DNA of 64,000 nt from an uncultured Acidimicrobiales bacterium (lineage in GTDB: Bacteria; Actinomycetota; Acidimicrobiia; Acidimicrobiales; VFJN01): the NCBI GenBank assembly GCA_963796415.1, contig CAWCLR010000005.1, positions 147,795-211,794 on the forward strand. Direction: 5' to 3'. The notes below the pieces were generated by a model. It was not told where the DNA came from, made no database searches, and saw only the letters and a program-made list of their open reading frames with translations. Made by a program: the position numbers and the translations under genes. Shown piece after piece: positions 4,853 to 27,840 of this stretch (position 1 is its first letter; every line of letters begins with the position of its first letter).

Positions 4853-4869
4853 TCACCCGGACCGGGTGA
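4853..4869. promoter_or_regulatory. TCACCC-N5-GGGTGA palindrome, site 1 (between divergent genes)
   Basis: TCACCCggaccGGGTGA; TACATT 22 nt away on the - strand, CAGGCT 23 nt away on the + strand. Confidence 0.7.
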
Positions 4870-4906
4870 CTGCACGTCCGCGGAGTGCCTGGCAGGCTGG
4901 TCGCGC

Positions 4907-5891
4907 GTGACGGACACCGACACCCCCGACGCCGACGGCACCGACGCGGCCCCGCCCGACGGACCGCCCCCTACCCCGGGCGTGGTGTGGGTTCCGGGCG
5001 GCACGTTCCGGATGGGGTCCGACGACCACTATCCCGAGGAGGCCCCGGCGCACCTCGTGACCGTCCGTGGATTCTGGATGGACCGCTGCGCGGTGACCAA
5101 CGACGAGTTCGCCCGCTTCGTGCAGGAGACCGGGCACGTCACGATGGCCGAGCAGGTGCCCGAAGCCGCCGACTACCCGGGGGCGCTCCCCGAGATGCTG
5201 GTGGCGGCCTCGTCGGTGTTCCGCAAACCGGGCCGGCCGGTGTCGCTCGACGACCCCTACACGTGGTGGACGTGGGTGCCGGGCGCCGACTGGCGGCACC
5301 CACGCGGGCCGCAGAGCTCGATCCGCCGCCTCGGAGATCACCCGGTGGTGCATGTGGCCTGGGCCGACGTCGAGGCGTACGCCGCCTGGGCCGGCAAGGA
5401 TCTGCCGACCGAGGCCGAGTGGGAACGGGCGGCCCGGGGCGGCCTGGAGGCCGCCGAGTTCGTGTGGGGCGAGGAGCTCACGCCCGGCGGCCGCCACATG
5501 GCCAATGTGTGGCAGGGCGACTTCCCCAACCACAACACCAAGGCCGACGGGTGGGAGTACACGGCGCCGGCCAAGTCGTTCCCGCCCAACGGCTACGGGC
5601 TGTTCCAGATGACCGGCAACGTGTGGGAGTGGACGACCGACTGGTACCAGGACCACGCGGCCGCCGCCCCCCAGCCCACCTGCTGCGCGGTCGAGAACTC
5701 CGCGGGGCGGCACGCGGGAGTCGAGCACCGAGCCGGGCGACCCGGCGGCGGTCCCCCGCCGGGTCATGAAGGGCGGATCGCACCTGTGCGCCCCCAGCTA
5801 CTGCCGTCGCTACCGCCCGGCGGCCCGCATGGCCCAGGCGATCGACACCTCGACCTCGCACCTCGGATTCCGCTGCATCGTCCGCCCGTAG
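4907..5891 (+). CDS. Formylglycine-generating enzyme (SUMF1/FGE-sulfatase) family protein; one extra base at ~5699
   Basis: [32 protein letters not shown]. Removing T5699 restores ENPRGG...[24 protein letters not shown]...HLGFRC to TAG 5891. Confidence 0.85.
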
Positions 5892-5903
5892 CCCCGGCCG
5901 ACC

Positions 5904-6347
5904 TCACCCGGGCGGGAAGCGGGCGACCCACCGGCGCTGCCACGGGGTCTCGACGGCTCGGGGGTGGTGGTGGGCGCGGGTCCACGCGACGGCCTCGTCG
6001 GCCGGCAGGCCGGACAGCACGCAGAGGCAGGCGATCACCGTGCCGGTGCGGCCCACCCCGCCGCCGCACGCGACCTCGACCCGCTCGCCCGCGGCGGCCC
6101 GCGCGCCCAGGGCCTGGATGCGGTCGATCGCCAGGTCCCGGTCGCGGGGCAGCAGGAAGTCGGGCCAGTCGACCCAGTCGTGGGGCCACGTCAGCGCACC
6201 GTCGTGGCGCCGCCGCATCCGCCGACCGCCGAGGTAGAGGCCGTAGTCGGGGGGCGGGCCCGCGGGGCGCGGCGCACGCAGCCCGCGTCCTCGCACCGAC
6301 TCGCCGGAGGGCAGCTCGATCGCTCCTTCCAGTTGCGCGGTGGTCAT
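5904..6347 (-). CDS. Protein-tyrosine/dual-specificity phosphatase family protein
   Basis: CX5R loop ACGGGVGRTG, WPDF loop, AVETPWQ. Confidence 0.85.
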   Translation of the reverse strand: MTTAQLEGAIELPSGESVRGRGLRAPRPAGPPPDYGLYLGGRRMRRRHDGALTWPHDWVDWPDFLLPRDRDLAIDRIQALGARAAAGERVEVACGGGVGRTGTVIACLCVLSGLPADEAVAWTRAHHHPRAVETPWQRRWVARFPPG

Positions 6348-6392
6348 GCCGCATCGTGCCGGTTCCGCCCGCGCCGGGCCAACCGGCTGGCG

Positions 6393-8924
6393 TCAGATCA
6401 GCTCGAGCTCGCGGCCGCGGAGCACGGCGTCGCGGCGGCCCTCGACGCCGAGCTTGCGGTACACGGCCTTGAGGTGGGACTTCACCGTGTTGATCGACAG
6501 GTGCAGGCCTGCGGCGATCTCCGCGTTGGACATGAGCGTCGGCAGGTACTGCAGCACCGCGGTCTCCCGGTCGGTCAGCACCTCGACCGGGCTCGTCGCC
6601 CGGCCGCCGCCCTGCTGCAGGTGGTCGCGCAGCTCGAGAACCAGGCCGCGGTGATTGGCGATGTCGGTGCGGTCGAGCACGGCCGACACCGCGGCGGCGT
6701 GGTCGAGCAGCGGGGCCCGGACGCCGTGGTCGGCGACGAGGTCGAGCGCGGCCTCGAGGTGCGCACCCGCCCCGAGCACGTCGTGGCCGGCGTCGCAGGC
6801 CATGGCGCACAGCACCCACGCCTCGATCAGCGTGCGGACGTGCACCGACGGGTGGTCGCGCCGCAGCGCCCGATCGAGGCCGCGGCGCGCCGCCTCGGGT
6901 GCGCCCCGACCGAGGTCCTGTCGGGCCCGGACGACGGCCCGCTCGGCGGGGCCGCCCACGGCGACGACGCGCCGGTCGGGGTCCACGACCTCGAGGACGC
7001 CGCACGCGATCAGTGCCTGCGCCGCCAGCGGGTGCCGGGCCGTGGCCGAGTCCAGCCAGGCGGAGCTCGCCCCCGCCGGCCCGAGGGCGGCGCGGGCGGC
7101 GTTGGTGACGGCCTGCAGCACGTGGGACGCGGGGGCGACGGCCGCGGCGGACTCGTCGAGGTGGACGAGCGCGGTGCGGCGCTCGCCCCGTTGGGCGCAC
7201 GCCAGCGCGGCGGCGAGGTGCGCGGCGCGCCGGGCCGTCGGGTGAGCCTCGATGATCTCGCCTGCGCCCAGCACCGCGGCGGCGCGGCGCGCCGCGTCCG
7301 CCGGGCCGCCGACGGCGGCCGTGACGAGGGCGGCGACGGCCGCGGCCTCGGCCGCCATCCAGTCCTCGTCGCGCCCGCCGGCGAGTCGGTCGAGGGTGGC
7401 GACGGCGGTGTCGAAGCGCCCCAGGTCGGCCGCCTGCTCGCCCGTTCGCAGGCGGGCGAGGCGCCGGACCGCGGACGTCGCCGTGTCGATCTCGTCCGCG
7501 ACGGCGAGGGCGCCGGCGGCGGCGCGGGCGCGTGCGTCGGTGCCGAACGCCCAGGCGTGTCCCAGGTCGAGCAGGTGGCGGTACAGGCCGCCGGAGGCGC
7601 GGGTCGCCCGCTCCGGCACCGGGCCGAGGAGGGTGTCGAGGTGGTCGCGGTGCAGGTCCGCGGCGTCGCGGTCGCCCGAGCGGCAGGCGGCGCCCGCCGC
7701 GACCAGCGCCAGCGCCGGCGTCTCCTGGAGGGCGCCGGCCGGCACCCGGGACGCGGCGTCGGGAACCGGGTCCGCGTCGTCGAGTGCGGCCGCCAGCCAG
7801 CGGTCGATCGCCAGCCGGCCGACGAGGGGCCAGTCTCCGGCGAGGCGGGCGTGGCGCTCGGCGTCCGCGGGACGGCCGTTTGCCATGAGCCATCCGGCGG
7901 CGCGCTCGTGCATCTCGCGGACGAGCTCGGGGTGCCGGCGGCGCAGCGTGGCCCGCAGCAGGTCGGCGAACAGGGCGTGGTAGCGGTACCACCCGTCGTC
8001 GGTGGTGTCCATGAGGAACACGCCCGACCGCTCGAGGTCGTCGAGCCGCTCGCCCGCCCGGTGGTCGGCGGTCAGGAGCGCCGCAAGGTCGGGGGTGAGG
8101 CGCTCGGCCACGCTGGTGCGGAGGAGGAAGTCCTGGACGGCCGCGTCCTGACGATCGAGTACCTCCTCCAGTAGGTAGTCCGCCAGCGCGGCTTCGGTGG
8201 CCGTGGTGCTGACGATCAGCTCGTGGGGGTCGCTGGATGCGGCCAGTGCGCCGGCCGCCAACCGCAGCCCGGCCGCCCACCCCTGCGTGCGCGACCACAG
8301 CGCGCGCACGTCGTCGCTCCGCAGGTCCACGCCCTGGGCCGCGAGCAGCTCGGTCGCCTCGTCGAGCGTGAATTCGAGGTCGGCGTTGCGGATCTCGCCG
8401 AGCCGCCCGTCGAGCCGCATGCGTCCGAGCGCGACCGGCGGGTCGGCCCGCGTGCAGAGCACGAGGGCCAGGCGGGGAGGAACGCGCTCGAGGAGGAGGC
8501 GCAGCGCCCCGAGTGCGGCAGGAGAGCGCAAGTGGTGGACGTCGTCGAGCACGAGGACCCACGGGCCTGGCGCCAGCGTGTCGACGGCCTGGTCGACCAG
8601 GGCCGCGTCGGCGCGCCGGCGGCGGGGCGGGTCGGGCACGGCGCCGGCGCCGGCCAGCGCCTTCACGACGCTGCGGGCGAGGCGGCCGGGCTCGTCGTGC
8701 CGCTCGTCGAGGGAGACCCAGGCGGCGGGGCGGTCGTCGACGCGCAGCCACGACGCGATGAGGGTGGTCTTGCCGGCGCCGGGCAGCCCGGACACGAGGG
8801 TCACGGGGCGGCGGTGGTCGTCGCCCAGCCGGGCCTCCAGCCGGTCGCGGCGGACGAGCCGGTCGGGCGCGGTGGTGATGGCGGTCGGTCGGCGGGCGAT
8901 GGCGGCGACGGGCGATGGCGGCAC
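6393..8924 (-). CDS. MalT-like STAND ATPase with C-terminal LuxR HTH (transcriptional regulator)
   Basis: Walker A GLPGAGKT, LVLDDVH, TQGWAAGLRL, YRYHALFAD, C-terminal LTDRE..VL..SNAEIA..LSINTVKSHLKAVYRKLGV. Confidence 0.9.
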   Translation of the reverse strand: MPPSPVAAIARRPTAITTAPDRLVRRDRLEARLGDDHRRPVTLVSGLPGAGKTTLIASWLRVDDRPAAWVSLDERHDEPGRLARSVVKALAGAGAVPDPPRRRRADAALVDQAVDTLAPGPWVLVLDDVHHLRSPAALGALRLLLERVPPRLALVLCTRADPPVALGRMRLDGRLGEIRNADLEFTLDEATELLAAQGVDLRSDDVRALWSRTQGWAAGLRLAAGALAASSDPHELIVSTTATEAALADYLLEEVLDRQDAAVQDFLLRTSVAERLTPDLAALLTADHRAGERLDDLERSGVFLMDTTDDGWYRYHALFADLLRATLRRRHPELVREMHERAAGWLMANGRPADAERHARLAGDWPLVGRLAIDRWLAAALDDADPVPDAASRVPAGALQETPALALVAAGAACRSGDRDAADLHRDHLDTLLGPVPERATRASGGLYRHLLDLGHAWAFGTDARARAAAGALAVADEIDTATSAVRRLARLRTGEQAADLGRFDTAVATLDRLAGGRDEDWMAAEAAAVAALVTAAVGGPADAARRAAAVLGAGEIIEAHPTARRAAHLAAALACAQRGERRTALVHLDESAAAVAPASHVLQAVTNAARAALGPAGASSAWLDSATARHPLAAQALIACGVLEVVDPDRRVVAVGGPAERAVVRARQDLGRGAPEAARRGLDRALRRDHPSVHVRTLIEAWVLCAMACDAGHDVLGAGAHLEAALDLVADHGVRAPLLDHAAAVSAVLDRTDIANHRGLVLELRDHLQQGGGRATSPVEVLTDRETAVLQYLPTLMSNAEIAAGLHLSINTVKSHLKAVYRKLGVEGRRDAVLRGRELELI

Positions 8925-9008
8925 CTGACCGTCTCCTCGGTGAGGGCGACCTCAGGGGAGTGACGTCACTGTCACCAAGGATGATGCCGTGCGCGGGTGA
9001 GACGCGCT

Positions 9009-9025
9009 TCACCCTGTGCGGGTGA
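9009..9025. promoter_or_regulatory. TCACCC-N5-GGGTGA palindrome, site 2 (upstream of the LuxR/MalT regulator)
   Basis: TCACCCtgtgcGGGTGA; CATCAT exactly 22 nt downstream on the - strand; extra GGGTGA half-sites at 8995-9000 and 9035-9040. Confidence 0.7.
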
Positions 9026-9092
9026 TACCGCACGGGGTGAGTTCTGGGGGCCGGCGTCGTTCAGGTGCTTGTCAGGTAGTCGCAGTCGCGCG

Positions 9093-9578
9093 TCAGTCTG
9101 CGAACACCTCCCGCAGCTTGCCCTCCTGCTCGCCCGAGAGGCTCGACTCGATCAGCTCGGGGCCTTGTCCCGCGAAGGCGTCGTGGACCCGGTCCAGCAC
9201 GGCGTCGCTCGACAACACGAACAGCGCCGACGTGCCGGGGGTGACCTTCGCCTTGACCGAGTCGATGAAGTCGTCGTCGATGCCGACGTCCGTGAGCGAT
9301 CCGCCGAGCGCGCCCGCGGCGGCGCCGACCGCCATGCCGAGCAGCGGGACGAAGAACAGCAACCCGAACAGCAGCCCCCAGAACGACCCGCTGAGGGCGC
9401 CCGCGCCTGCGAGGCTCTCGATCTGGCGCGTCCTCGGGCGCTTCTTGTCGGGCGGCCAGCTCACGGTGGCAGCGTCATGGATCGTGATGAGGTTCTGCTT
9501 GGACAGCGACACGAGCGTCTGCTCGGCGTGGTCCGCCCCGACCGGATCGTCGAACTTCCACACCGTGAGGGTCGCCAT
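9093..9578 (-). CDS. DUF1269-type membrane protein
   Basis: MATLTVWKFD, GALSGSFWGLLFGLLFFVP, LTDVGIDDDFI, PGTSALF; GAGGAG RBS. Confidence 0.85.
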   Translation of the reverse strand: MATLTVWKFDDPVGADHAEQTLVSLSKQNLITIHDAATVSWPPDKKRPRTRQIESLAGAGALSGSFWGLLFGLLFFVPLLGMAVGAAAGALGGSLTDVGIDDDFIDSVKAKVTPGTSALFVLSSDAVLDRVHDAFAGQGPELIESSLSGEQEGKLREVFAD

Positions 9579-9638
9579 CGCTGCTCCTCGGTCGCCGAAG
9601 CACCACGAGGAGCGTCACGCCGTCTGGCCCGTCCGCCA

Positions 9639-9655
9639 TCACCCCTCGGGGGTGA
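9639..9655. promoter_or_regulatory. TCACCC-N5-GGGTGA palindrome, site 3 (upstream of DUF1269 gene)
   Basis: TCACCCctcggGGGTGA; GACGCT exactly 22 nt downstream on the - strand. Confidence 0.7.
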
Positions 9656-10946
9656 CGGCGCGGCGCCGCCGGACGCGCCGGCCGGTCGGTGCGGCATGGC
9701 GGGCGGGACCGTCCCCGTCGTTCTCGCCGGTGCCCATTTCGGGCGCGTCGATGCCCGCGCCCCACCCCTGGTCGAGACCCCCGTCGCCGTGGTCGTGGCC
9801 GCGTAGGTCGTCCCCCGAGCCCAGGACGGCGGCGGCCAGCGCCGTCGTGATCGGCACCGACGCCACCAGGCCGATCGACCCGACCAGCATGCGCACGACC
9901 TCGACCGCGATCAGCTCGCTGGTCAGGAGGCGCCCGGCGGGCTGGTCGCCCTGCACGAAGAACAGCAGCAAGGGCAGCGACGCCCCGGCGTAGGCCAGCA
10001 CGAGCGTGTTGACCGTGGAGGCCACGTGATCGCGGCCGACCTTCGTCGCCTCGCGGTAGAGGAAGCGGCGCGACAGCCCGGGGTTGGCCCGCCGCAGGGC
10101 CGACACGATGGACACCTGGCTCACGGTCACGTCGTCGAGCACGCCGAGGGCACCGACGACGATGCCGGCGACGAGCAGGCCCCGCAGGTCGAGAGCCTCC
10201 GCGGTGACCCGCAGGGTCTGGGCCCGCCCGTCGGCGAGGCCGGACAGGTTGGTCGCCGCGGCCACGCCGAACGCCAGCGCGCTCGTGATCGCCAGGGCGG
10301 CGAGGGTGCCGGCCAGCGCCACGGTCGTCCCGGTGTTCACGCCGTGGGCCAGGTACAGCGCGATGAAGGCGATCAGAACCGTGGCCGCCAGGGCCACCGC
10401 CACGGCCGGCTCGTCGCGGAGCAGCGCGGGCACCAGGAACGCGAGCAGCACCGCCCCGCTGGCGGCCAGGCCGATCAGCGCCCGCACGCCCTGCCACCGG
10501 CCGAAGGCGATCACGACCACGACGAACAGCCCCAGCAACCACAGCATCGGGGTCTCGCGCTGGAAGTCGGCGAACGAGTAGCGGTAGCGCGGCGGGCTGG
10601 TGGCCACGTCGAGCAGCACGATGCCGTCGCCGCGGGCCAGCTCGGGGACGTCGAACTGGGTCGACCGCACCTCGAAGGTGATGTCGTCGCCCGCGTCGTC
10701 GCCCGAGGTCAGCTCGGCGCTCACCAGCTGGCAGGGCCCGGGTGCGTCGATCTCTGGGTCCTGGCACGAGTCGGTGTCGATGCCGGTCACGGTGGCGTCG
10801 ACGTAGGTGTTGGGCTGGGTCCCGAGGTCGGGCGCATCGCCACGCGGCCAGAAGGCGATCGTCCCCAGCACAGCCAGCGCTCCGGCGATCACGACCACCA
10901 GCGTGAGCACCCGGGCCGACCGGCGGGTCGGGCCGTCCTGGGGCAT
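9639..10946 (-). CDS. YibE/F family membrane protein
   Basis: FADFQRE, GALGVLDDVTVSQ, GRDHVASTVNTLVLAYAG motifs; ATG 10946 preceded by GGAGG. Confidence 0.85.
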   Translation of the reverse strand: MPQDGPTRRSARVLTLVVVIAGALAVLGTIAFWPRGDAPDLGTQPNTYVDATVTGIDTDSCQDPEIDAPGPCQLVSAELTSGDDAGDDITFEVRSTQFDVPELARGDGIVLLDVATSPPRYRYSFADFQRETPMLWLLGLFVVVVIAFGRWQGVRALIGLAASGAVLLAFLVPALLRDEPAVAVALAATVLIAFIALYLAHGVNTGTTVALAGTLAALAITSALAFGVAAATNLSGLADGRAQTLRVTAEALDLRGLLVAGIVVGALGVLDDVTVSQVSIVSALRRANPGLSRRFLYREATKVGRDHVASTVNTLVLAYAGASLPLLLFFVQGDQPAGRLLTSELIAVEVVRMLVGSIGLVASVPITTALAAAVLGSGDDLRGHDHGDGGLDQGWGAGIDAPEMGTGENDGDGPARHAAPTGRRVRRRRAVTPEG

Positions 10947-11029
10947 GGGCCGTCCTCCGGGGCCGTCGGGGTGGTCGAGGCGGACCCTAGCGGTCGCCGG
11001 GGGGGCGATCGGGGACCCGGGCGCGCGCA

Positions 11030-11046
11030 TCACTCCCGTCGGGTGA
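11030..11046. promoter_or_regulatory. TCACCC-N5-GGGTGA palindrome, site 4 (one mismatch; upstream of aqpZ)
   Basis: TCACTCccgtcGGGTGA; imperfect -10 TAGCTG 23 nt downstream. Confidence 0.6.
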
Positions 11047-11106
11047 GGACACCGGACCGCCACCGCACGTAGCTGGGTCACCACCGACCAACCACGGAGG
11101 GCCTCC

Positions 11107-11865
11107 ATGGACCTGCAACGCAAGGCGATCGCCGAGGTGCTCGGCACGTTGTGGCTGGTGCTGGGTGGCACCGGCAGCGCCGTGCTCGCCGCCATCTTCC
11201 TGTCCGACTTCCAGGACGGCGTCGTCAGCACCGGCATCGGCTTCCTCGGCGTCTCGCTGGCGTTCGGCCTGACCGTCGTGACCGCGGCCTACGCCCTCGG
11301 CCACATCTCCGGGGGGCACTTCAACCCGGCCATCACGCTCGGGGTGCTGGTCGCCAAGCGCATCGAGGCGCGCGCGGCCGTCGTGTACATCGTCGCCCAG
11401 GTGGTGGGCGCCATCCTCGGCTCGGGGATCGTGTTCGCCATCGCCAACGGGGTCGACGGGTTCTCGGTCGGCACCGGTGCGGGCGAGAACACGCTGGCGG
11501 CGAACGGGTTCGCCGACCACTCGCCCGGCGGCTACGACTGGGTCGCAGCACTGATCGCCGAGGTGGTGCTCACCTTCTTCTTCCTGCTGGTGGTCCTCGG
11601 CGTGACCGGCCGCGGCGCGCCGGCGGGCTTCGCCCCGCTGGCGATCGGCCTGGCGCTCACGCTGATCCACCTCATCAGCATCCCGGTGACCAACACGTCG
11701 GTGAACCCGGCGCGGTCGACCGGTCCCGCCGTGTTCGTCGGGGGCTGGACGCTCGAGCAGCTCTGGATGTTCTGGCTGGCGCCCATCCTGGGCGCGGTGC
11801 TGGCCGGGCTGGTGCACTACTTCGTGATCGAGGAGCGCCCCGAGACCGCCGAGGGCTACGCCTGA
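11107..11865 (+). CDS. aqpZ: Aquaporin Z
   Basis: Two NPA boxes ([24 protein letters not shown]), GGAGG RBS. Confidence 0.95.
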
Positions 11866-11902
11866 TCGTCGGCCGGCGGTGCTCGTCCGTGGGGGGCGGT
11901 GG

Positions 11903-11996
11903 CGAGGCAATGGGTTCCGCGGCAGCGAGCCTGAGGCGTGGGTTCCGTATGCGGAACCCATTGCCTCGTCCTCTCCTGGGCGGAACCCAATGCCTC
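11903..11996. repeat. Four-copy inverted-repeat element between convergent genes (REP-like or bidirectional terminator)
   Basis: Perfect 18-bp IR CGAGGCAATGGGTTCCGC (11903-11920) with 11951-11968, plus degenerate copies at 11933-11947 and 11981-11996. Confidence 0.65.
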
Positions 11997-12040
11997 GGGA
12001 CCAGGCGAGCAGCCCGACTCACGGATCCAGTGGGGAGCCG

Positions 12041-13753: not shown

Positions 13754-13857
13754 GGGCCCACTCTGCCCGAACCGTCACTCGCTGGTGAACGCCGTTACCG
13801 TCGATGCCGCCGACGAGCAGAACATGAACGATGGCGTCAGGCGTTCATCAAAGCCGG

Positions 13858-14256
13858 TCAGCTCGGGCTCGCCGTCTCGACGCCGAGCGCTCGCGCGGCG
13901 TCGGCCATCCGCCCGTCGTAGGTGACGAGGGCACGAAGGTCGCCGCCGAGCATCCGGGCTGACGCAACGTGGATCGCCTCGAGGCTTCGCAGCAGCGACT
14001 CGGGTGCGAGCGTCGCGGCCACGTCGAGCAGATCGCGGCTCAGGCTCACCTGGTGGACGCGGGCCAGTTGCCGACGTGCCTTGCCGAGCGCGTCTGCTCC
14101 ACCCGGCAGAACGGCCCGCACGACCTCGACGCGAGCGAGCTCACTGGTCACCTTGTCGTCGGCCCGGTGGCGGCGGAGGTAGCGCCGAAGAGCCGAGGAC
14201 TCGCTCTCGGCCTGGACGAGCTTCACGATGGCCGAGGAGTCGAGGTACAGCCTCAC
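13858..14256 (-). CDS. vapC: VapC PIN-domain toxin
   Basis: GTG overlaps antitoxin stop; YLDSSAIVK, ELARVEV, LRSLEAIHVASA, VTYD. Confidence 0.85.
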   Translation of the reverse strand: MRLYLDSSAIVKLVQAESESSALRRYLRRHRADDKVTSELARVEVVRAVLPGGADALGKARRQLARVHQVSLSRDLLDVAATLAPESLLRSLEAIHVASARMLGGDLRALVTYDGRMADAARALGVETASPS

Positions 14257-17579: not shown

Positions 17580-17582
17580 AGA

Positions 17583-19503: not shown

Positions 19504-19537
19504 CGCATCTCCACAGGGTTCCCCAGCTGCTTCCGGG

Positions 19538-20047
19538 TCAGCCCGGGAAGTCGCCGGCGTCGATGCGGACCTTGCGCAGCAGGCCGGTGACCTGGTCCAG
19601 CTCGCGTTCGGACAGGGCGGCCATGCCGAAGCTCGTGGCGCTGACCGCCTCGGTGGCCTTGTCGACGGTGCGACGACCGTCGTCGGTGATCTCCGCGAGC
19701 GTCGTGCGGCGGTCGGTGGGGTGGGCCGAGCGGCGCACGAGGCCCTGGCTCTCGAGGCGGTCGACGATGTTGGTGATGCTGGTCGGGTGGACCATCAGCC
19801 GCGTCCCCATCTTGCCGAGCGGAAGGGCCCCCTCACGGCTGAACGCCAGCAGCACCAGCGCCTCGTAGCGGGCGAAGGTGAGGTCGAACGGGCGGAGGAC
19901 GTCCTCGACGCAGGCGAGGATGAGCTGCTGTGCCCGCATGATCGACGTGGTGGCCGTCATGGCGGCGGGCGCCGCCCAGCCTCGGGCCTCCCATTGCCGC
20001 CGGGCTTCGGCGAGGACGTCGAAGTCCATCGACCTCTGGTAGGGCAC
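19538..20047 (-). CDS. MarR family regulator
   Basis: LTFARYEAL, VHPTSITNIVDRLE..GLVRR..HPTDRR; TAAGAT 6 nt before GTG. Confidence 0.9.
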   Translation of the reverse strand: MPYQRSMDFDVLAEARRQWEARGWAAPAAMTATTSIMRAQQLILACVEDVLRPFDLTFARYEALVLLAFSREGALPLGKMGTRLMVHPTSITNIVDRLESQGLVRRSAHPTDRRTTLAEITDDGRRTVDKATEAVSATSFGMAALSERELDQVTGLLRKVRIDAGDFPG

Positions 20048-20161
20048 GGCGGCATCTTACGTCGGATGTCCAGCAATCGGGGATCCGGTGGTCGGATGGC
20101 AGGTGATCGGAAGAGTTACTCTCGGTAGACAGATCGTCGGATCCCCAACTATCGTGCGTCG

Positions 20162-20255
20162 CGTCCCGGTGGGCGTCGCCACCGCCGCCCGGATATTCAG
20201 GGGTCGGGTCCGGCTCCCCCCGGACCCGGCCGGAGGCGTCCCGCCCACCGGTCGT
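20162..20255 (+). ncRNA. Candidate small RNA with a C-rich loop
   Basis: TAGACA-N18-TATCGT promoter (20126-20155); outer stem 20166-75/20242-51; inner hairpin 20202-20231 carrying UCCCCCC. Confidence 0.35.
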
Positions 20256-20279
20256 GGGGCGTCGGTCACGCCACGTGGC

Positions 20280-21032
20280 TCAGCGGGGCTCGAAGACGAC
20301 GACATCGAAGCGGCCGGCGCGGTCGCGCCGCCGGTCGGGCTCGGGCAGGGCGCGGAGCGCGGCGATCGTCGGGACGACGACCTCGTCCCAGACATCGTCG
20401 GGCAGGTCCCACAGCATCGACCACGAGCGGGCCGCGATCTGGTCCGCCTGCTCGCCGGGGGAGATGCTCCAGACGCCGTCGCCCGTGGTCGCCCGCTCGA
20501 CGACCCGCAGGTCCGCCCCCTCGGCCAGGGCGGCGAGCTGGTCGGGGCCGTCGCGCTGCGGGCGCAGCACCTCGGCCATCGGCCCGACGACCCGATCGAT
20601 CTCGTCGCGGTCGGTCTGGATGCCCGCCGGCACGATCACCAGCCGCCCTCGGGGCGCCACGACCTCGCCGACCGAGGCGAGGAACGCGCCGACGTCGGGG
20701 ACCAGCTGGGTCACCCACACGGTCAGCGCGTTCGGCACCGACCTCGGGCGCAGCGGGAGGCGGTAGCCGTCACCGACCGCGATGCAGGACCCGAGGCGCA
20801 CGTGGGCGCGGGTCAGCATCGGCAGGGACAGGTCGACGCCGACGACCCCGTGGCCTCGGTCGACCAGCTCGCGGGCGATGACACCGGTGCCCACCCCGAC
20901 CTCGACCACCGGGCCCGGCCGCAGCCAGTCCACCACGCCCGCGGCGATGCGCTGCCCGCGCTCGAGCCCACCCCGAGTGGCGTCGTAGTCCGCCGCGATG
21001 CGGTCGAAGGCCACCGATTCCCCCCGGGTCAT
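20280..21032 (-). CDS. SAM-dependent methyltransferase
   Basis: AFDRIAADYD, VEVGVGTG, GVDLS; TAGCCT 7 nt before ATG. Confidence 0.85.
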   Translation of the reverse strand: MTRGESVAFDRIAADYDATRGGLERGQRIAAGVVDWLRPGPVVEVGVGTGVIARELVDRGHGVVGVDLSLPMLTRAHVRLGSCIAVGDGYRLPLRPRSVPNALTVWVTQLVPDVGAFLASVGEVVAPRGRLVIVPAGIQTDRDEIDRVVGPMAEVLRPQRDGPDQLAALAEGADLRVVERATTGDGVWSISPGEQADQIAARSWSMLWDLPDDVWDEVVVPTIAALRALPEPDRRRDRAGRFDVVVFEPR

Positions 21033-21141
21033 GGGGCGGAGGCTAGGACGGGCGGCGCCCGTGCCAGCCGCGCGATTTCCGCCGGCCGCGATGTCCGTTC
21101 CGTCCAAGACGGCGGACCGGCCCCGGGCCTACGGTCGCCGC

Positions 21142-22038
21142 ATGGACCACGTAGACGCCGCCGCCCTGGACGCCGCCGAGCGGTTCGTGCTCGGCGACTC
21201 CCGCCTCATCGACCGCCACCGCTTCGCCCACCAGTTCCGCGGCGGGCCCGGCGCCGCGGTCGTCGCCGCGCTCGGACCCTACGCCAACCCCGACGGCGGG
21301 TTCGGGAACGCCCTCGAGCCCGACCTGCGCGGCGCGCCCAGCCAGCCCGAGCCGGTCGAGGTGGCGTTCCGCATCCTCGACGAGACCGACGGCGGCGCCG
21401 CCTTCGCCGGCCCGCTGGTCGACGCCGCCTGCGACTGGCTGGCGGCCAACAGCGCCCCTGACGGCGGGGTGCCCTCGGTGCTCCCGTCGGTGGTCGACGC
21501 CCCGCGGGCGCCGTGGTGGCAGCCGGTCGAGGGGACGCCCGGAGACCTCGTGCCCACCGCGCCGATCGCCGGGCTGCTCCACGCCCACGGCCACGACCAT
21601 CCGTGGCTCGACGGCGCGACCCGGTTCTGCCGCGAGCGGATCGACGCGGTCGCCGCCGACGGCGCCGACCTCGGTCCCTACACCGCGGTCGCCGTCCTCG
21701 ACTTCCTCGACCACGTGCCCGACCGCGACTGGGCCGAGAAGGCGTTCGCCGGTGTGCGCGACGCCGTGCTCGCCACCGTCACGTTCGATCCGGACGCCCC
21801 GGGGCACGTGCACCTGCCGATCGAGTTCGCCCCGCGGCCCGACGGGTTCGGGCCGCGGCTGTTCGACGACGGCGTGCTGGAGCGCCACCTCGACCTTCTG
21901 GTGGCGGCCCAGGCCGACGACGGCGGGTGGGGCATCAACTGGGAGGCATGGGCGCCGGTGACCGTCGCCGAGTGGCGCGGGTACGCCACGGTCGAACGCC
22001 TGAAGCTCCTCCGGGCCCACGGCCGCTGGAGCGTGTGA
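21142..22038 (+). CDS. Conserved hypothetical protein, prenyltransferase/squalene-oxidase repeat-like
   Basis: YANPDGGFGNALEPDLR, AQADDGGW repeats; TACGGT 6 nt before ATG. Confidence 0.75.
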   Translation: MDHVDAAALDAAERFVLGDSRLIDRHRFAHQFRGGPGAAVVAALGPYANPDGGFGNALEPDLRGAPSQPEPVEVAFRILDETDGGAAFAGPLVDAACDWLAANSAPDGGVPSVLPSVVDAPRAPWWQPVEGTPGDLVPTAPIAGLLHAHGHDHPWLDGATRFCRERIDAVAADGADLGPYTAVAVLDFLDHVPDRDWAEKAFAGVRDAVLATVTFDPDAPGHVHLPIEFAPRPDGFGPRLFDDGVLERHLDLLVAAQADDGGWGINWEAWAPVTVAEWRGYATVERLKLLRAHGRWSV

Positions 22039-22076
22039 TCGAGGGCCGTCGGGCTCGGGACCCGAGGTCAGTCGGA

Positions 22077-22832
22077 TCAGCCGGCGAGGAGGGTGGTCAT
22101 GGTGATCCCGGACAGGGCGGACACGTCCCGGGCCATGTGCGCCTGGTCCGCGTAGCCGCACTCGTGGGCCACCCGCGCCAGGTCGTCGCCGGCGCGTGCC
22201 CGGCGCAGCGCGTTCTGGAACCGCAGCACCCGATGCAGCGTCTTGGGTCCGTACCCGAAGGCGGCCAGGGAGCGCCGGTGCAGCTGCCGCTCGGACAGGC
22301 CCATGGCGTCGGCGAGACCGCGCACCGGCGCCGGCTCGCGTGCGTCGCGCAGCGCGTCGGCGACGTGGCGCACCACCGGGTCCACCGACGCCACTCCCCG
22401 GCCGCTCGCCGTGAGCCGGTCTGCGACCGCCTCGGCCAGTGCGTGCTCGGGCCGGTCGGCGGCGGCGAGTGCATCGGCCAGCGCCTCGGTCGCCGGACGG
22501 CCCCACAGCTCGGCCAGGTCGGGGCGCTCGTCGCGCAGTGCGTCGAGCGGCACGCCGAGCACGTCGGCCGCCGCCCCCGGGCGGAACCGGACCGCGGCGA
22601 TGGTGGTGTCGGAGCCCATCCCGGCCGAGTGGGCGTGCGTGTCGGGACCGGCGACGACGAGGCGTGCCCGGCCGTCGTCGGTGATCCACATGAGGTCGGT
22701 GCACCCGTCGGGCACGACGGGGGCCGTGTCGGTGGCCGCCGCCCGACGCACCCACACGCAGGCCAGGTGCCCGGCGAGGGGCGCCGGTGGCGCCGTCTCC
22801 TGGTACCGGGGTGTCAGGGTGGTAGGCGGCAT
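22077..22832 (-). CDS. AraC family regulator
   Basis: VVPDGCTDL, LSERQLHR..FGYGPK, GYADQAHM. Confidence 0.9.
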   Translation of the reverse strand: MPPTTLTPRYQETAPPAPLAGHLACVWVRRAAATDTAPVVPDGCTDLMWITDDGRARLVVAGPDTHAHSAGMGSDTTIAAVRFRPGAAADVLGVPLDALRDERPDLAELWGRPATEALADALAAADRPEHALAEAVADRLTASGRGVASVDPVVRHVADALRDAREPAPVRGLADAMGLSERQLHRRSLAAFGYGPKTLHRVLRFQNALRRARAGDDLARVAHECGYADQAHMARDVSALSGITMTTLLAG

Positions 22833-22970
22833 CGTGACCGTTTCGAACGTGCGGGTGGTCTGTCAGGGTAGGGGAGCGGGCACGGATCCCGCGTCGTGGG
22901 GCCGTCGGGCCAGCCGCTGCGTGAACGGTGTGTCACATCGCGTCGGATCGCCGACAGTCGCTATACAGAT

Positions 22971-23640
22971 GTGAGACGATCGATCCGGGACGCTCGACTG
23001 ATCGTCCAGAAGCAGTTCGTCCACAAGATCGTGCAGAAGTTCGTCGAGGAGATCGCCCAGGAGGTCGCCCGTGGGGTCCAGGCCGCGCAAGCCGTCCGCC
23101 ACCCGCGACCGTTCCGCCCGGCCGCCCGGCCGCCCCGCCGCGCCGATCGCCCCCGCGGGCGCCTCGGTGGGGTCGGGTCGGTCCCACGGGAGCCGGCCCC
23201 GACCCGCGGCCATCGACCTGACGGGCCCGTCGAGCGCGGCGGTCGTGACCCTGGCCGACTGGGCCCCGGCCGCGGCGCGCGTGGCGCCGGCGGGCAAGGG
23301 CAAGGCGAAGGCCGCGGCGAAGGCAGCGAAGAAGGCAGCGAAGAAGGCCGCCAAGGCCGCGGCGAAGGCAGCGAAGAAGGCCGCGAAGTCGCAGCGGAGC
23401 AAGAAGGCGAAGGCCGCGAGGAAGGCCGAGGCGAAGGCCGCCAAGTCGGGCAAGAAGGGCAAGAGGGGCAAGGCCGGGGCGGAGCGGGGCAAGAAGGCGC
23501 GGCGGCCAGGAGCGGCCAACTCGGCCGTCGTTGCGCTGGCGGACGGGAACGACGGCGGGACGAAGAAGGCCAGAAAGGCCAAGGCCGAGCAGGCCGCGGG
23601 CGGCGGGGTGGCAAAGCCGACGAAGGGCGAGGTCCGACAG
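22971..23640 (+). CDS. Lys/Ala-rich (histone-H1-like) coding segment upstream of and in frame with E1; probable frameshift at ~23100-23205
   Basis: Coding-like GC3 in frame VRRSIRDARLIVQKQFVHKIVQKFVEEIAQE switches to frame AAIDLTG...KAAKKAAKK; no stop before ATG 23641. Confidence 0.4.
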
Positions 23641-25815
23641 ATGGACACGAAGAACCCCAACCTCGACGATCCGGCGTCGATCCCCGTTGCCGCGTCGGCG
23701 ACGGCGGTGGATGCCGTCCCGGCCTCCGCCGACCGTCCCGACGACATCGGCGCCTACCCGGCCGACGAGCTGCGGCGTGACCTGCTCCTCGCCCGCGTCT
23801 CCCGAGCCATCGACGACCGCGAGATCGCCCTGCAGAAGCAGAGCCGGGTGTTCTTCCAGATCTCGGGCGCCGGCCACGAGGCCCTGCTGCTCGGACTCGC
23901 CCACGAGCTGCGGCCGGGCCACGACTGGTTCTTCCCGTACTACCGCGACCTCGCCCTCATGCTGGGGCTCGGCATCTCCGCCGAGCAGATCCTGCTGCAG
24001 GCGGTCGGCTCGGCCGAGGATCCGGCGTCGGGCGGCCGCCAGATGCCGGCGCACTGGGGCGACCGCGACCGCAACGTCGTGACGCAGTCGAGCCCGACGG
24101 GCAGCCAGTGCATTCCGGCCGTCGGCTGCGCCGAGGCCGGCCGCTACATCGTCCGCCGGCCCCAGCTCGGCCTGCCCGCCCACGGCGACGAGGTCACCTA
24201 CGTGAGCCTGGGCGAGGGCGCCACGTCCGAGGGTGAGTTCTGGGAGAGCCTCAACACCGCCTGCACCGAGCACCTGCCGGTGCTGTTCCTGGTGGCCGAC
24301 AACGGCTACGCCATCTCGGTTCCGTCGGCCGAGCAGTCGCCGGCGCCGATCAGCGAGCTGGTGAAGGGGTTCGCCGGCCTGCAGACCTGGACGGTCGACG
24401 GCACCGACTACTTCGATGTGCGCCGGACCGCCAAGGCGGTGGTGAGCCACGTGCGGGCGGGCGTCGGGCCGGCGCTGATCCACGCCACGGTGACACGTCC
24501 GTACTCCCACTCGGCGGCCGACACGCAGAGCAAGTACCGCCTGCCCCACGAGCTCGAGTGGGAGGCCCGGAACGACCCCATCGAGCGCCTCGAGGCCGCC
24601 CTCGTGGCGGGCGGGGTGCTCACCGCGGACGAAGCGGCGGAGCTGCGGGAGGAGGCCCGCCGCACCGTGGCCGAGGCCGCCAAGGCCGCCCTCGCCCGAG
24701 CCCGCCCCGACACGGCCTCCGTGCTCGATCACGTGGTGGCACTGCCCGACATCCCCGACCCGGGCGAGGCCGCCACCGGCCCCGACGGCGAGGACGTGGT
24801 GGCGCTCGGCGAGGCGATCCGCCGGACCCTGCACGAGGCCATGGAGGCCGACGAGCGCATCCGCGTGTTCGGCGAGGACGTGGCCGACGCCCGCGAGGCG
24901 ATCCTCGCTGACGTCGAGGGCAAGGGCGGCGTGTTCGGCACCACCCACGGCCTGCAGCGCGACTTCGGCCGAGCCCGGTGCTACAACACGCCGCTCGCCG
25001 AGGCCAACATCATCGGCCGGGCGGTGGGCCAGGCGATCCGCGGGCTGCGGCCGGCGCCCGAGATCCAGTTCTTCGACTACATCTGGCCTGCGATGCAGCA
25101 GATCCGCAGCGAGGCGGCGACGATCCGCTGGCGGTCGAACGGGGCGTTCACGTGCCCGACGGTCATGCGGGTCCCCATCGGCGGCTACCTGCAGGGCGGA
25201 TCGATCTGGCACAGCCAGTCGGGCGAGTCGATCTTCGCCCACATCCCCGGCCTGCTCATCGCCTATCCGTCGCGGGCCAGCGACGCCGCCGGCCTGCTGC
25301 GGGCGGCGTTCCGGTGCGAGGACCCGGTGCTGTTCCTCGAGCACAAGCACCTGCTCCGCCAGCCGTACACCCGCGACCCGTTCCCGGGGGCGGACTTCGT
25401 CCTGCCCTTCGGCCGGGGCCGGTATGTCACCCGAGGGACCGACCTGACGATCGTGACCTGGGGGGCGACCGTCGAGCGGTCCCGCAAGGCGGCCGCGCAG
25501 CTCGCCGAGACCGACGGCGCCTCGATCGAGGTGATCGACCTGCGGACGCTCGTGCCCTGGGACCAGGAGATGGTGGCCGAGTCGGTGGCGAAGACGTCGC
25601 GGCTGCTCGTGGTGCACGAGGACGTCGTGCGGGCCGGGTTCGGCGGCGAGATCGCGGCGTGGGTGGCAGACCAGGCGTTCTGGCAGCTCGACGCCCCGAT
25701 CGGCCGGGTCGGCGCCCAGGAGTGCCACGTGGCCTACGCCCCCGAGCTCGAGGACGCGATCCTCCCCCAGGTCGACGACATCGCCACGGCCGCCCACCGC
25801 CTGCTCTGCGAGTGA
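23641..25815 (+). CDS. 2-oxoacid (probably branched-chain) dehydrogenase E1, fused alpha/beta subunits
   Basis: GAGHEA, PYYRD, GEGATSEG...DNGYAIS TPP motif, FGEDV, NTPLAE, EIQFFDY, EVIDLR; GAGG before ATG 23641. Confidence 0.9.
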   Translation: MDTKNPNLDDPASIPVAASATAVDAVPASADRPDDIGAYPADELRRDLLLARVSRAIDDREIALQKQSRVFFQISGAGHEALLLGLAHELRPGHDWFFPYYRDLALMLGLGISAEQILLQAVGSAEDPASGGRQMPAHWGDRDRNVVTQSSPTGSQCIPAVGCAEAGRYIVRRPQLGLPAHGDEVTYVSLGEGATSEGEFWESLNTACTEHLPVLFLVADNGYAISVPSAEQSPAPISELVKGFAGLQTWTVDGTDYFDVRRTAKAVVSHVRAGVGPALIHATVTRPYSHSAADTQSKYRLPHELEWEARNDPIERLEAALVAGGVLTADEAAELREEARRTVAEAAKAALARARPDTASVLDHVVALPDIPDPGEAATGPDGEDVVALGEAIRRTLHEAMEADERIRVFGEDVADAREAILADVEGKGGVFGTTHGLQRDFGRARCYNTPLAEANIIGRAVGQAIRGLRPAPEIQFFDYIWPAMQQIRSEAATIRWRSNGAFTCPTVMRVPIGGYLQGGSIWHSQSGESIFAHIPGLLIAYPSRASDAAGLLRAAFRCEDPVLFLEHKHLLRQPYTRDPFPGADFVLPFGRGRYVTRGTDLTIVTWGATVERSRKAAAQLAETDGASIEVIDLRTLVPWDQEMVAESVAKTSRLLVVHEDVVRAGFGGEIAAWVADQAFWQLDAPIGRVGAQECHVAYAPELEDAILPQVDDIATAAHRLLCE

Positions 25816-25841
25816 CGGGCGCGGGCCTGCCAGGCAGCACA

Positions 25842-25873
25842 ACGCCCCGCCGCCTGACGGGGCAGCGGGGCGT
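25842..25873. terminator. Hairpin between convergent genes
   Basis: ACGCCCCGC..GCC/GGC..GCGGGGCGT stem. Confidence 0.55.
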
Positions 25874-25915
25874 CGGCTAGAACTCTGTGGAACGATCAGC
25901 GCGTGGGGAGGCTGA

Positions 25916-26029
25916 TCACCCTTCGATGTGCGACTGCACGTCGTCGTGGTCGACCAACAGGCCGAGCAAACCGGCCATCACGATCACCACCGCGATCGCT
26001 ACCAGTCCGAGGATCAGGATCTCGTTCAT
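25916..26029 (-). CDS. 37-aa single-TM small protein (not in ORF track)
   Basis: MNEILILGLVAIAVVIVMAGLLGLLVDHDDVQSHIEG*; GAGG just upstream, hairpin downstream. Confidence 0.55.
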   Translation of the reverse strand: MNEILILGLVAIAVVIVMAGLLGLLVDHDDVQSHIEG

Positions 26030-26265
26030 TGCCTCGCCACCTTCTGTCGGGCCCGCCACGGGCGATCGAGACCCGGCGCTGCTCGCCGTGCCCCCCCGGC
26101 CACCGGGGAGGGTGGAGCCGAGTGCTGCGATCTTTACCCAGGCCGGTGCGATTTGTCTCTGACAGTTCGATGACGATGTGCGCCACGCCTACCACGGTGC
26201 GCGGTTAGGTTCTCGAACGTTGCCGGCCCGTCGCCCGTCGCCCGCCGCGCTGCTCGTCGCGCTCG

Positions 26266-26961
26266 GTGCTGGCGCTCCTGGCTCCGGTCGGCGTCGTCAT
26301 GGCCACCGGCCTGGCGCACGGGGGTGCCGGGGAGGACGGCGAGGTCGAGACGGCCGACGGCCGCGACCCTGACGGGCGCGTCACCGACCCGGACGCGCCG
26401 ATCACGGTCGGCGTAGGCCCGAGCATGACTGGCACGGCCCCGTCCGCGACCGTGCCCCCCTCGACCGAGCCAGCCACCACCGTCCCGCCGGCACCCGCCA
26501 CCACCGCTCAGCCCACCACGACCGCCGCCCCGCCGCCTCCGACCACCGCCGCCCCGCCGCCGCCGACGACGGCGCCGCCGCCCCCGCCGCCCGCAGGCGC
26601 GGCCGACCAGGTGGTCGCGCTGGCGAACGAGGCACGGGCCCAGGCGGGATGCGGGCCCCTGCGGGTCGACGCCCGCATCACGGCCGCCGCCCAGGCCCAC
26701 AGCGACGACATGGCCGCCAACGGCTACTTCTCGCACGACTCGCTCGACGGGCGCTCGTTCGCCGACCGGCTCCGGGCCGCCGGCTACCCGAGCCCGGGCG
26801 GCGAGAACATCGCCCAGGGCCAACGCAACGCCCAGTCGGTGCACCAGGCCTGGATGAACTCGTCGGGCCACCGGGCCAACATCCTCAACTGCGGCTTCAC
26901 GACGATCGGCGTCGGCGTGAACCAGACCGCGTGGACCTGGACGCAGGACTTCGGCTACTGA
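26266..26961 (+). CDS. CAP (SCP-like) domain secreted protein with Pro/Thr linker
   Basis: AAQAHSDDMA..YFSH, GENIA, WMNSSGHRANIL. True start may be TTG 26220 through an indel near 26265. Confidence 0.85.
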   Translation: MLALLAPVGVVMATGLAHGGAGEDGEVETADGRDPDGRVTDPDAPITVGVGPSMTGTAPSATVPPSTEPATTVPPAPATTAQPTTTAAPPPPTTAAPPPPTTAPPPPPPAGAADQVVALANEARAQAGCGPLRVDARITAAAQAHSDDMAANGYFSHDSLDGRSFADRLRAAGYPSPGGENIAQGQRNAQSVHQAWMNSSGHRANILNCGFTTIGVGVNQTAWTWTQDFGY

Positions 26962-26986
26962 TCCACCGGTGCGCGGTCGGGCCCCG

Positions 26987-27003
26987 TCACCCGACCGGGG
27001 TGA
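26987..27003. promoter_or_regulatory. TCACCC-N5-GGGTGA palindrome, site 5 (upstream of GAP/Sap gene)
   Basis: TCACCCgaccgGGGTGA; CACGAT exactly 22 nt downstream. Confidence 0.7.
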
Positions 27004-27062
27004 GGCGGGCGGCCCGCGGCCGCAACACGATCCGGCCGTCCGGCGGATGACGGAGGCCCGCA

Positions 27063-27737
27063 ATGCTCGGTGAGGCGATCGGTGACCTGCTGCCGGCGGC
27101 CGTCGGGGTGGCGCTCAGCCCGGTGCCGATCGTGGCGGTGATCCTCATGCTGGGCACGCCCCGGGCCCGCACGAATGGGCCGGCCTTCGCCGCCGGGTGG
27201 GTGGCGGGGCTGGTGACGGTGGGCGTGATCGTGCTGCTGGTCGCCGGCAACGCCGATTCGAGCGGCGACACGAGCACCGCGGTCGACGTGGTGGTGCTGC
27301 TGTTCGGCGTGCTGCTGCTGGCGGTCGCCGTCAAGCAGTGGCGGGGCCGGCCGAGGCCGGGCGAGACGCCCGAGATGCCGAAGTGGATGGCGGCCATCGA
27401 CGAGTTCACCGCCGGGCGCTCGTTCGGGCTCGGGGTGCTGCTCTCGGGCGTCAACCCGAAGAACCTGGCCCTCACGCTGGCGGCCGCGGCATCGCTGGCC
27501 CAGGCGGGGCTGTCGGCGGGAGGCGACGCGGTCGGGCTGGCGGTGTTCGTCGTGATCGGCTCGGTCACGGTGGCCGGGCCCGTCCTCGCCTACCTGTTCA
27601 TGGGAGAGCGGGCCGAGCGGGCGCTGGGCGAGGTCAAGCAGTTCATGTCCGACCACAACGCAGTGATCATGGCGGTGGTCTGCCTCGTCCTCGCGGCCAA
27701 GCTCATCGGCAACGGCATCGGCGGCCTCGCCGACTGA
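27063..27737 (+). CDS. GAP/Sap family (glycolipid-addressing-like) membrane protein
   Basis: AVGVALSPVPIVAVIL, PKWM..ID, NPKNL; GGAGG RBS. Confidence 0.85.
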   Translation: MLGEAIGDLLPAAVGVALSPVPIVAVILMLGTPRARTNGPAFAAGWVAGLVTVGVIVLLVAGNADSSGDTSTAVDVVVLLFGVLLLAVAVKQWRGRPRPGETPEMPKWMAAIDEFTAGRSFGLGVLLSGVNPKNLALTLAAAASLAQAGLSAGGDAVGLAVFVVIGSVTVAGPVLAYLFMGERAERALGEVKQFMSDHNAVIMAVVCLVLAAKLIGNGIGGLAD

Positions 27738-27823
27738 GCACCTGTCTGGACGGATTTCCGGCCGCGGTCGGTGGTGTGCCCAGTGCCGTTCCCGCGGCCA
27801 GATTTCCGGCGACGAAGTTCCGA

Positions 27824-27840
27824 TCACCCCCTGCGGGTGA
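27824..27840. promoter_or_regulatory. TCACCC-N5-GGGTGA palindrome, site 6 (upstream of DUF6325-SHOCT genes)
   Basis: TCACCCcctgcGGGTGA; GAGGCT exactly 22 nt downstream. Confidence 0.7.

Follow-up and report, generated by a model that had tools for sequence, protein, structure and literature searches.

A TCACCC-N5-GGGTGA promoter palindrome and its predicted MalT-type regulator in uncultured Acidimicrobiales

Genes and palindromes of the locus

The window analysed here, a stretch of 64,000 nucleotides (G000:C5:147795-211794) from the draft genome of an uncultured Acidimicrobiales bacterium (5.97 Mb, 73% G+C, 20 contigs), carries a 17-bp palindrome of the form TCACCC-N5-GGGTGA (hereafter, the box) in front of several membrane protein genes and of the gene for an 843-aa MalT-type regulator of the large ATP-binding LuxR-type (LAL) class. 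A first-pass annotation of the window had listed six boxes, and a re-scan recovered all of them: five exact copies at 4853, 9009, 9639, 26987 and 27824, and one copy with a single mismatch at 11030. Chance expectation in 100 shuffles of the window was 0.01 exact copies and 0.36 copies at up to one mismatch, and the observed counts were reached in none of the 100. Five or six exact or one-mismatch boxes are found within 23 kb of the regulator gene.

The regulator gene (6393..8924, minus strand) encodes a P-loop NOD, a helical middle region and a GerE helix-turn-helix (HTH), as judged from Pfam (AAA_16, AAA_22, GerE) and from a match to the MalT structure 8bob. Upstream of it stands box 2, TCACCCTGTGCGGGTGA (9009..9025), with a -10-like CATCAT (8981..8986, minus strand) at 22 nt; in orthologue loci, CATCAT, CATCCT, CATGCT or CATGAT occupies the same place. 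Two extra half-sites accompany box 2, namely a GGGTGA (8995..9000) between the box and the -10, and a TCACCC (9035..9040; as read along the gene) that precedes the box by 9 nt. Just past the -10, the leader of the regulator gene harbors a TGACAG-N-ACGTCA-like element (window about 8955-8975) that is conserved in five orthologue loci (L002, L006, L012, L015 and L018) and may represent either another operator or a leader element. On the same strand, 46 nt past the regulator stop, lies a gene for a 147-aa dual-specificity/tyrosine phosphatase-like protein (5904-6347, minus strand; PTP-SAK, 2.7e-8; Y_phosphatase, 7.6e-6) which may be co-transcribed with the regulator.

Box 1, TCACCCGGACCGGGTGA (4853..4869), is common to two divergent promoters and has a -10-like hexamer on either side. 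Leftward, TACATT (4825..4830, minus strand) lies 22 nt from the box and is followed after 7 nt by the GTG start (4817; leaderless) of a gene for a 788-aa membrane protein with an LPG_synthase_TM (MprF-like) C-terminal domain (2451..4817, minus strand; PF03706, 2e-29), the homologues of which are box-linked in G002 and G017. Rightward, CAGGCT (4893..4898, plus strand) lies 23 nt from the box, as the first-pass annotation had it, and is followed after 8 nt by the GTG (4907) of an FGE-sulfatase-like gene (4907..5891, plus strand; PF03781, 3.4e-70). The latter is spread over two frames with a change near 5700-5707: tblastn with orthologues gives 76-85% in frame +1 as far as residue ~278, and 83-89% in frame +2 beyond it. 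Either an indel of the assembly or true pseudogenisation could account for this frame change; the first frame itself continues to 6472, across the opposite-strand phosphatase gene.

The DUF1269 membrane protein gene (9093..9578, minus strand; PF06897, 4.1e-38; box-linked also in G023 and G051) is preceded by GACGCT (9611..9616, minus strand), 22 nt from box 3, TCACCCCTCGGGGGTGA (9639..9655), the first three bases of which are the stop codon of a 436-aa open reading frame (ORF; 9639-10947, minus strand). Between this ORF and an aquaporin (MIP) gene (11107..11865, plus strand; PF00230, 1.2e-52) lies box 4, TCACTCCCGTCGGGTGA (11030..11046), whose one-mismatch TCACTC arm recurs at this position in both of the closest loci, L085 and L086. 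The -10 on the aquaporin side is imperfect at 22-23 nt (GTAGCT/TAGCTG), as had been noted from the outset. The 436-aa ORF has a high third-position G+C content and a GGAGGA ribosome site, and matches no Pfam family; on its side of box 4, a TAGGGT hexamer is found 39 nt from the box, which would place the box near -60.

Farther downstream, box 5, TCACCCGACCGGGGTGA (26987..27003), is followed at 22 nt by CACGAT (27026..27031, plus strand) and by the gene for an SfLAP/GAP-family membrane protein (27063..27737, plus strand; PF11139, 1.3e-49; box-linked in G023, G053 and G054). Box 6, TCACCCCCTGCGGGTGA (27824..27840), is followed at 22 nt by GAGGCT (27863..27868, plus strand), then by a DUF6325 gene (27988..28416, plus strand; PF19850, 1.4e-13; box-linked in G015, G017, G023 and G054) and a SHOCT-domain gene (28474..28761, plus strand; PF09851, 4.4e-7). 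A 31-codon ORF (27881-27973, plus strand) begins 12 nt past GAGGCT and lies in the stretch separating box 6 from the DUF6325 start (27988). Pfam agrees with the gene names originally given to the locus (LPG_synthase_TM, FGE-sulfatase, AAA_16 plus GerE, DUF1269, MIP, SfLAP for 'GAP', DUF6325 and SHOCT), and the five hexamers originally named at 22 nt (TACATT, CATCAT, GACGCT, CACGAT and GAGGCT) were found again on re-reading and by script.

Distribution of the box in the genome and in related genomes

The genome contains 11 exact boxes, five of them in the window. When the spacer between the same arms was varied from N0 to N12, N5 yielded 11 copies, N4 none and each of the other spacers 0-4, and a reversed-pattern control gave 0-1 copies per genome across the 80 genomes of the family. 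Genes were called crudely via third-position G+C (5460 calls covering 77.6% of the genome). Nine of the 11 exact boxes fall outside these calls. The other two reach no further into a gene than the stop codon of the one lying upstream, which at 9639 is the 436-aa ORF and at C5:52893 a LysR gene. Intergenic placement is seen for 15/26 one-mismatch sites and for 83/289 two-mismatch sites (29%), the latter being close to background. In four relatives (G002, G015, G017 and G023), 43/44 exact boxes are outside called genes. The promoter positions that the first-pass annotation assigned to the boxes are thus matched by a genome-wide, intergenic enrichment, as opposed to an equal frequency inside genes. 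Over 84 exact boxes from eight genomes of three genera, the two arms are invariant and no position beyond them is conserved. A search of the genome contigs for related loci returned only two close loci and one distant LAL (L087); the latter has a single TCACCC and no GGGTGA, which makes a box impossible, and is also devoid of a homologue of the 77-aa protein described below.

Promoter geometry

Spacing was analyzed in the 11 boxes of the genome together with the 44 from the four well-assembled relatives, that is, 55 exact boxes and 110 flanks. The pattern '.A...T' occurred 31 times at an offset of 22 nt and 17 times at 23 nt, compared to 0-5 times at each other offset between 10 and 39. With box 4 (11030) included, 45 of 56 boxes have such a hexamer at 22-23 nt, three of them on both sides. 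Upon extension to G051, G053 and G054, which belong to two other genera and bring the set to the 84 exact boxes mentioned above, 75 promoter-oriented flanks were obtained, 49 with the hexamer at 22 nt and 26 with it at 23 nt.

An ATG or GTG stands 4-10 nt past the hexamer in 24/48 hexamer-bearing flanks. Where it is the called start, as in the genes for the MprF-like and FGE-like proteins, the mRNA is expected to be leaderless, which places the transcription start independently. From the fixed offset and the nearby start codons, the box spans about -51 to -35 with its center near -43, the position that the first-pass annotation had derived from the window; the geometry is the same in eight genomes and agrees with the mapped MalT promoters of Actinoplanes sp. 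SE50/110 described in the text of PMC7567727. The estimated, rather than mapped, distance from box to transcription start amounts to 35-36 nt, the sum of the 22-23-nt offset, the 6 nt of the hexamer and a further ~7 nt. The first base of the hexamer is T in just 11/48 flanks. The lack of a -35 element combined with a weak -10 is the pattern expected of activator-dependent promoters.

The 843-aa regulator

Residues 21-409 of the regulator align to residues 14-415 of Escherichia coli MalT in 8bob (E 2.7e-42), and the P-loop NOD is recognized by Pfam as AAA_16 (7.2e-9) and AAA_22 (2.5e-9). The Walker A/B residues G49, G51, K52, T54, D127 and D128 are invariant across 17 orthologues. The C-terminal GerE HTH (PF00196, 2.9e-14; residues 782-834) has PDB matches in ChrA, VraR, ComA, GerE and DosR. 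By sequence, the regulator is genuinely related to MalT. Orthologues from the same genus share 60-84% identity overall, and this conservation is unevenly distributed: within the genus, the HTH (776-843) is 87-97% identical and the middle region 49-55%; between genera, the values are 68-79% and 37%, respectively. Such a strongly constrained HTH fits the invariant arms of the box.

The genome encodes 56 GerE-domain ORFs, compared to 15 and 6 in the box-poor genomes G093 and G094. Among the 56, the helix NTVKSHLK is found only in the regulator and in one paralogue (C9:706810-709347). This paralogue (locus L078, G000:C9:706754-709427) is a LAL of 38% identity with TPR_MalT and GerE domains, and is flanked by two near-identical boxes, TCACCC-N5-GGGTGT. 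The downstream one has a CATCAT at 23 nt and a leaderless-type promoter in front of a 72-aa gene with no Pfam match; the same TCACCC-N5-GGGTGT variant stands past the paralogue in L030.

Linkage and co-occurrence of regulator and box

In 17/19 orthologue loci (L002-L020), an exact box precedes the regulator gene by about 85-130 nt, so that the box placed ahead of the regulator's own gene in the window is a recurrent feature. The two exceptions are L014, with a two-mismatch box at the same place, and L017, where the contig ends inside the gene. In 12 of the 19 regulator promoters, an additional exact TCACCC half-site, the third, precedes the box by 8-9 nt, which fits binding of the protein as more than a dimer.

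Motif and MalT-LuxR gene, whose co-occurrence had been envisaged in the first-pass annotation, track each other across the 80 family genomes, the genome under study included. At a cut-off of E<=1e-75, an orthologue of the regulator is present in 39/80 (22/28 in genus g1, 11/11 in g19, 4/4 in g20 and 2/4 in g21). These 39 include two unpublished genomes, G050 and G057, without which the numbers with and without an orthologue are 37 and 41; none of the conclusions depends on these two. Orthologue-bearing genomes contain 2-14 exact boxes (median 8), and 35 of the 41 genomes devoid of an orthologue contain 0-1. Five genomes of the same genus among those missing the orthologue (G001, G010, G020, G093 and G094) hold 0, 0, 0, 1 and 0 boxes, respectively; two of these genomes are 98% complete.

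Genes behind the box

Box-adjacent genes from the eight genomes were clustered by blastp, and clusters were named from the Pfam matches of the members in the genome under study; genes having been called crudely in the relatives, the counts that follow are lower bounds. The most conserved target is an unnamed 77-aa protein, behind an exact box in 7/8 genomes and behind a one-mismatch box in the eighth. It is followed by the FGE-like protein (7/8, counting the window copy), a PLDc_N-SHOCT membrane protein (6/8), DUF6325 and DUF7144 (5/8 each), a ZIP-like membrane protein (5/8, in genus g1 only) and SfLAP (4/8). DUF1269, the MprF-like protein, a luciferase-like monooxygenase, a YGGT-like protein and a 395-aa membrane protein with no Pfam match each recur in 3/8. 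Box targets thus recur across three genera, and the regulator is the sole DNA-binding protein among the conserved box-linked genes. One-mismatch intergenic boxes in the genome precede three sulfatases, a SulP permease, a K+ channel, DUF308 and YccF and, at further such sites, a kinase-like MprF paralogue and two LAL paralogues.

Of the families before which the motif had been predicted to be enriched, DUF1269, DUF6325, SHOCT and SfLAP/GAP are represented behind exact boxes, and the three sulfatases behind one-mismatch boxes; FGE likewise recurs behind exact boxes. The first-pass annotation also spoke of a regulon spread over at least two loci. The loci of the window are real, but the system is genome-wide, with 11 exact and about 14 one-mismatch intergenic sites. 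Its content suggests a programme of membrane, ion or envelope homeostasis (envelope stress).

A 77-aa protein that travels with the regulator

The 77-aa protein (P0002, G000:C9:365881-366111; L070:2200-2433, minus strand) has no Pfam match and at least 586 homologues, all of them unnamed or 'hypothetical' among the 120 listed. Strong matches (E<=1e-20) occur in 36/80 family genomes, 35 of which are among the 39 that have the regulator; the four regulator-bearing genomes without it are 67-73% complete, and G021 is the only one of the 41 genomes without a regulator to have a strong match. In genera g19 and g20, its gene lies tail-to-tail with the regulator gene, ~10-140 nt apart (10 published genomes as well as L093, L095 and L107). 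Within this family, then, the 77-aa protein accompanies the regulator and is in every case a box target, a linkage that is new. Between the DUF1269 and regulator genes of g19, where a canonical box would be expected ahead of the latter, L093 instead has a TCACCC-N17-GGGTGA (about 2072-2100) and L095 a lone GGGTGA (about 1276).

The model of the 77-aa protein has a beta-alpha-beta-beta-alpha-beta fold (mean pLDDT 79.7). A fold search against the PDB returned nothing at E<=0.001, the weak best matches being ACT domains, acylphosphatases and S6 permutants (TM 0.5-0.7), and a fold this generic assigns no function. Complex prediction of the regulator with the 77-aa protein scored 0.00 in two runs without controls, which is evidence neither way. 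The small protein may work with these regulators. More speculatively, and with the odds against it, it could be an obligate partner of this MalT-type subfamily, as a co-sensor or a feedback antagonist, in which case regulator, protein and box would make up an undescribed three-part switch, widespread in soil Actinomycetota, governing a DUF-built membrane-homeostasis programme.

Proposed mechanism and alternative explanations

Starting from the motif, its spacing, the promoter geometry, conservation and co-occurrence, we infer the binder, the sign of regulation, the oligomerisation of the protein and its role. With a probability of roughly three in four, the palindrome is the operator of the 843-aa MalT-type (LAL/STAND) regulator, acting as a class II activator on a genome-wide regulon. 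A dimer of the C-terminal GerE HTH domains would read the TCACCC and GGGTGA arms over a free 5-bp spacer. The box (about -51 to -35) would stand in for the -35 element, 22-23 nt ahead of a weak -10, and from there the regulator would recruit RNA polymerase like MalT does. By analogy with MalT, ATP- and ligand-driven oligomerisation probably precedes activation. A single box may serve two divergent promoters, as at the MprF-like and FGE-like genes, and the box and extra half-site of the regulator promoter would provide positive feedback. The programme so controlled would be genome-wide and consist, for the most part, of small membrane proteins without a known function (DUF1269, DUF6325, DUF7144, SHOCT/PLDc_N, YccF, DUF308 and SfLAP), along with an aquaporin, a K+ channel, SulP, a ZIP-like protein, the MprF-like lipid-modifying protein, the FGE-like enzyme with sulfatases, and the 77-aa soluble ACT-like protein.

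A number of observations weigh against this reading. Binding and activation by the regulator are predictions, made from sequence in an uncultured lineage, and the physiological role is read from Pfam names that are for the most part DUFs. The 843-aa regulator gave no TPR_MalT hit (Pfam, E<=0.01); this model matches two paralogues at 3e-14 and 2.7e-15. On either side of 11/56 boxes, xAnnnT is missing at 22-23 nt. G021 (87% complete, 630 contigs) has seven boxes and no orthologue was found in it; nor was one found in G075, G082, G089, G059 and G091, yet these hold 4, 3, 3, 2 and 2 boxes, respectively. Kinship among the genomes makes co-occurrence overstate the support, which is strong support and not a statistic. 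In genus g19, the regulator gene has no box immediately ahead of it, the nearest one serving the DUF1269 gene that precedes it, so that direct autoregulation may be specific to one genus or may, in g19, proceed via the DUF1269 promoter. Finally, the half-sites of the Streptomyces BldM operator are identical to those of the box (PMC4125116), and a half-site alone does not identify a LAL as the binder; the C9 paralogue, having the same NTVKSHLK helix, could bind the same sites.

These last two points lead to the possibility, in our view an unlikely one, that the boxes are real operators of another LuxR/GerE protein, either a BldM-like NarL/FixJ response regulator or the paralogous LAL on C9, with the 843-aa regulator being merely one of the targets. 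BldM footprints on TCACcCgnncGgGTGA, as described in the text of PMC4125116, and the 56 GerE-domain ORFs of the genome represent many alternative binders. Against this, the N4 spacing of BldM has 0 copies in the genome versus 11 for N5, which is the spacing of the Actinoplanes MalT motif (PMC7567727, main text); the conserved box-linked genes include no other DNA-binding protein; and exact-box counts follow the orthologue of the window regulator over the 80 genomes, in a profile made for this one of the 56 GerE ORFs.

It is quite improbable that the regulator, though bound at the boxes, works chiefly as a repressor or a dual regulator instead of as a class II activator. The LAL SCO6993 of S. 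coelicolor represses via short palindromes and binds its own promoter, according to the text of PMC9628970, and the regulator's own promoter has the extra half-site at 8995-9000 between box and -10. The boxes, however, replace the -35 at a fixed distance from weak -10s (first base T in 11/48), which is the signature of activator dependence, and the homologous arrangement in Actinoplanes activates (PMC7567727, main text). Very improbable indeed is that the palindromes are RNA hairpins (terminators, REP-like or attenuator elements) rather than DNA operators: every box can be folded as a 6-bp stem and the stem around 9639 extends (z = -3.9) at the end of an ORF, but the arms are invariant in sequence without covariation while the loop is free, no U-tract follows the boxes, 3/5 folds do not surpass those of shuffled sequence (z -0.7 to -1.5), the fixed distance to the -10 puts the boxes upstream of the transcripts, and an Rfam search of the window returned zero families.

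With the 843-aa protein as activator, uncultured soil Acidimicrobiales would gain a first sharply defined regulon, with an operator, a geometry, a regulator and ~25 candidate promoters. Placing DUF1269, DUF6325, DUF7144, SHOCT, YccF, DUF308 and SfLAP in one co-regulated programme would give a start for finding their functions, and box, -10 and regulator are simple enough for testing in a heterologous host.

Comparison with known systems

A literature search combining the half-sites with LuxR, and covering LAL/MalT, returned neither TCACCC-N5-GGGTGA nor an Acidimicrobiales LAL regulon; supplementary tables (S4 and S6 of PMC7567727; S2 of PMC4125116) may list further sites. BldM was the only other published match to the half-site found (PMC4125116, main text). 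The BldM operator resembles the box in its identical half-sites and in being bound by a dimer of LuxR/GerE-type HTHs. It differs in being a 16-bp site with an N4 spacer, absent from this genome, and in that its binder is a small atypical response regulator for development (PMC4125116, main text). Streptomyces LALs such as SCO6993, PikD and RapH share the plan of a P-loop with a LuxR HTH, and SCO6993 binds its own promoter; in the account of PMC9628970, however, these proteins are mostly pathway-specific for antibiotic clusters, unlike the membrane-protein regulon proposed here, and no consensus site could be derived for SCO6993, whereas the consensus here is sharp.

E. coli MalT has a homologous NOD (8bob, E 2.7e-42) and a GerE HTH, and is likewise an activator acting from sites at -35, with several half-sites at some promoters. 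Its boxes, GGA(T/G)GA (as given in the text of PMC7567727), are asymmetric, arranged as direct and inverted repeats and used with CRP, in contrast to the single symmetric 17-bp palindrome described here, and its sensor binds maltotriose, whereas nothing ties this regulon to maltose. MalK, MalY and Aes would be the counterparts of the partner role proposed for the 77-aa protein.

The closest published case is MalT of Actinoplanes sp. SE50/110 (ACSP50_3915), a MalT-like LuxR regulator that activates 40/51 genes of one region through a TCATCC-5nt-GGATGA motif overlapping the -35, 34.4 +/- 1.0 nt from mapped transcription start sites (PMC7567727, main text, here and for the rest of this comparison). 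In both systems a large LuxR/MalT-like activator is encoded inside its regulon; a hexamer-N5-hexamer palindrome lies at -35, ~34 nt from a start site that is estimated in the present case; and many promoters are involved, many of them of poorly annotated and membrane or transport genes, with no maltose genes in either account. The half-sites differ by one base each (TCATCC/GGATGA versus TCACCC/GGGTGA), the Actinoplanes sites belong to one 51-gene region while those described here are genome-wide, and the hosts are a member of the Micromonosporaceae and an uncultured Acidimicrobiales, the two regulators being likened by motif and architecture and not by their sequences. The regulon was first put forward as undescribed, which holds for its lineage and half-site, whereas this kind of system had already been described in Actinoplanes. 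The present findings would extend those from Actinoplanes, in that actinobacterial MalT homologues control non-maltose genes via 6-5-6 palindromes at -35, a one-base change of half-site accompanying a different lineage. The system is best described as a putative actinobacterial MalT-type activator with a 6-5-6 palindrome at -35, whose half-site, lineage and set of targets are new.

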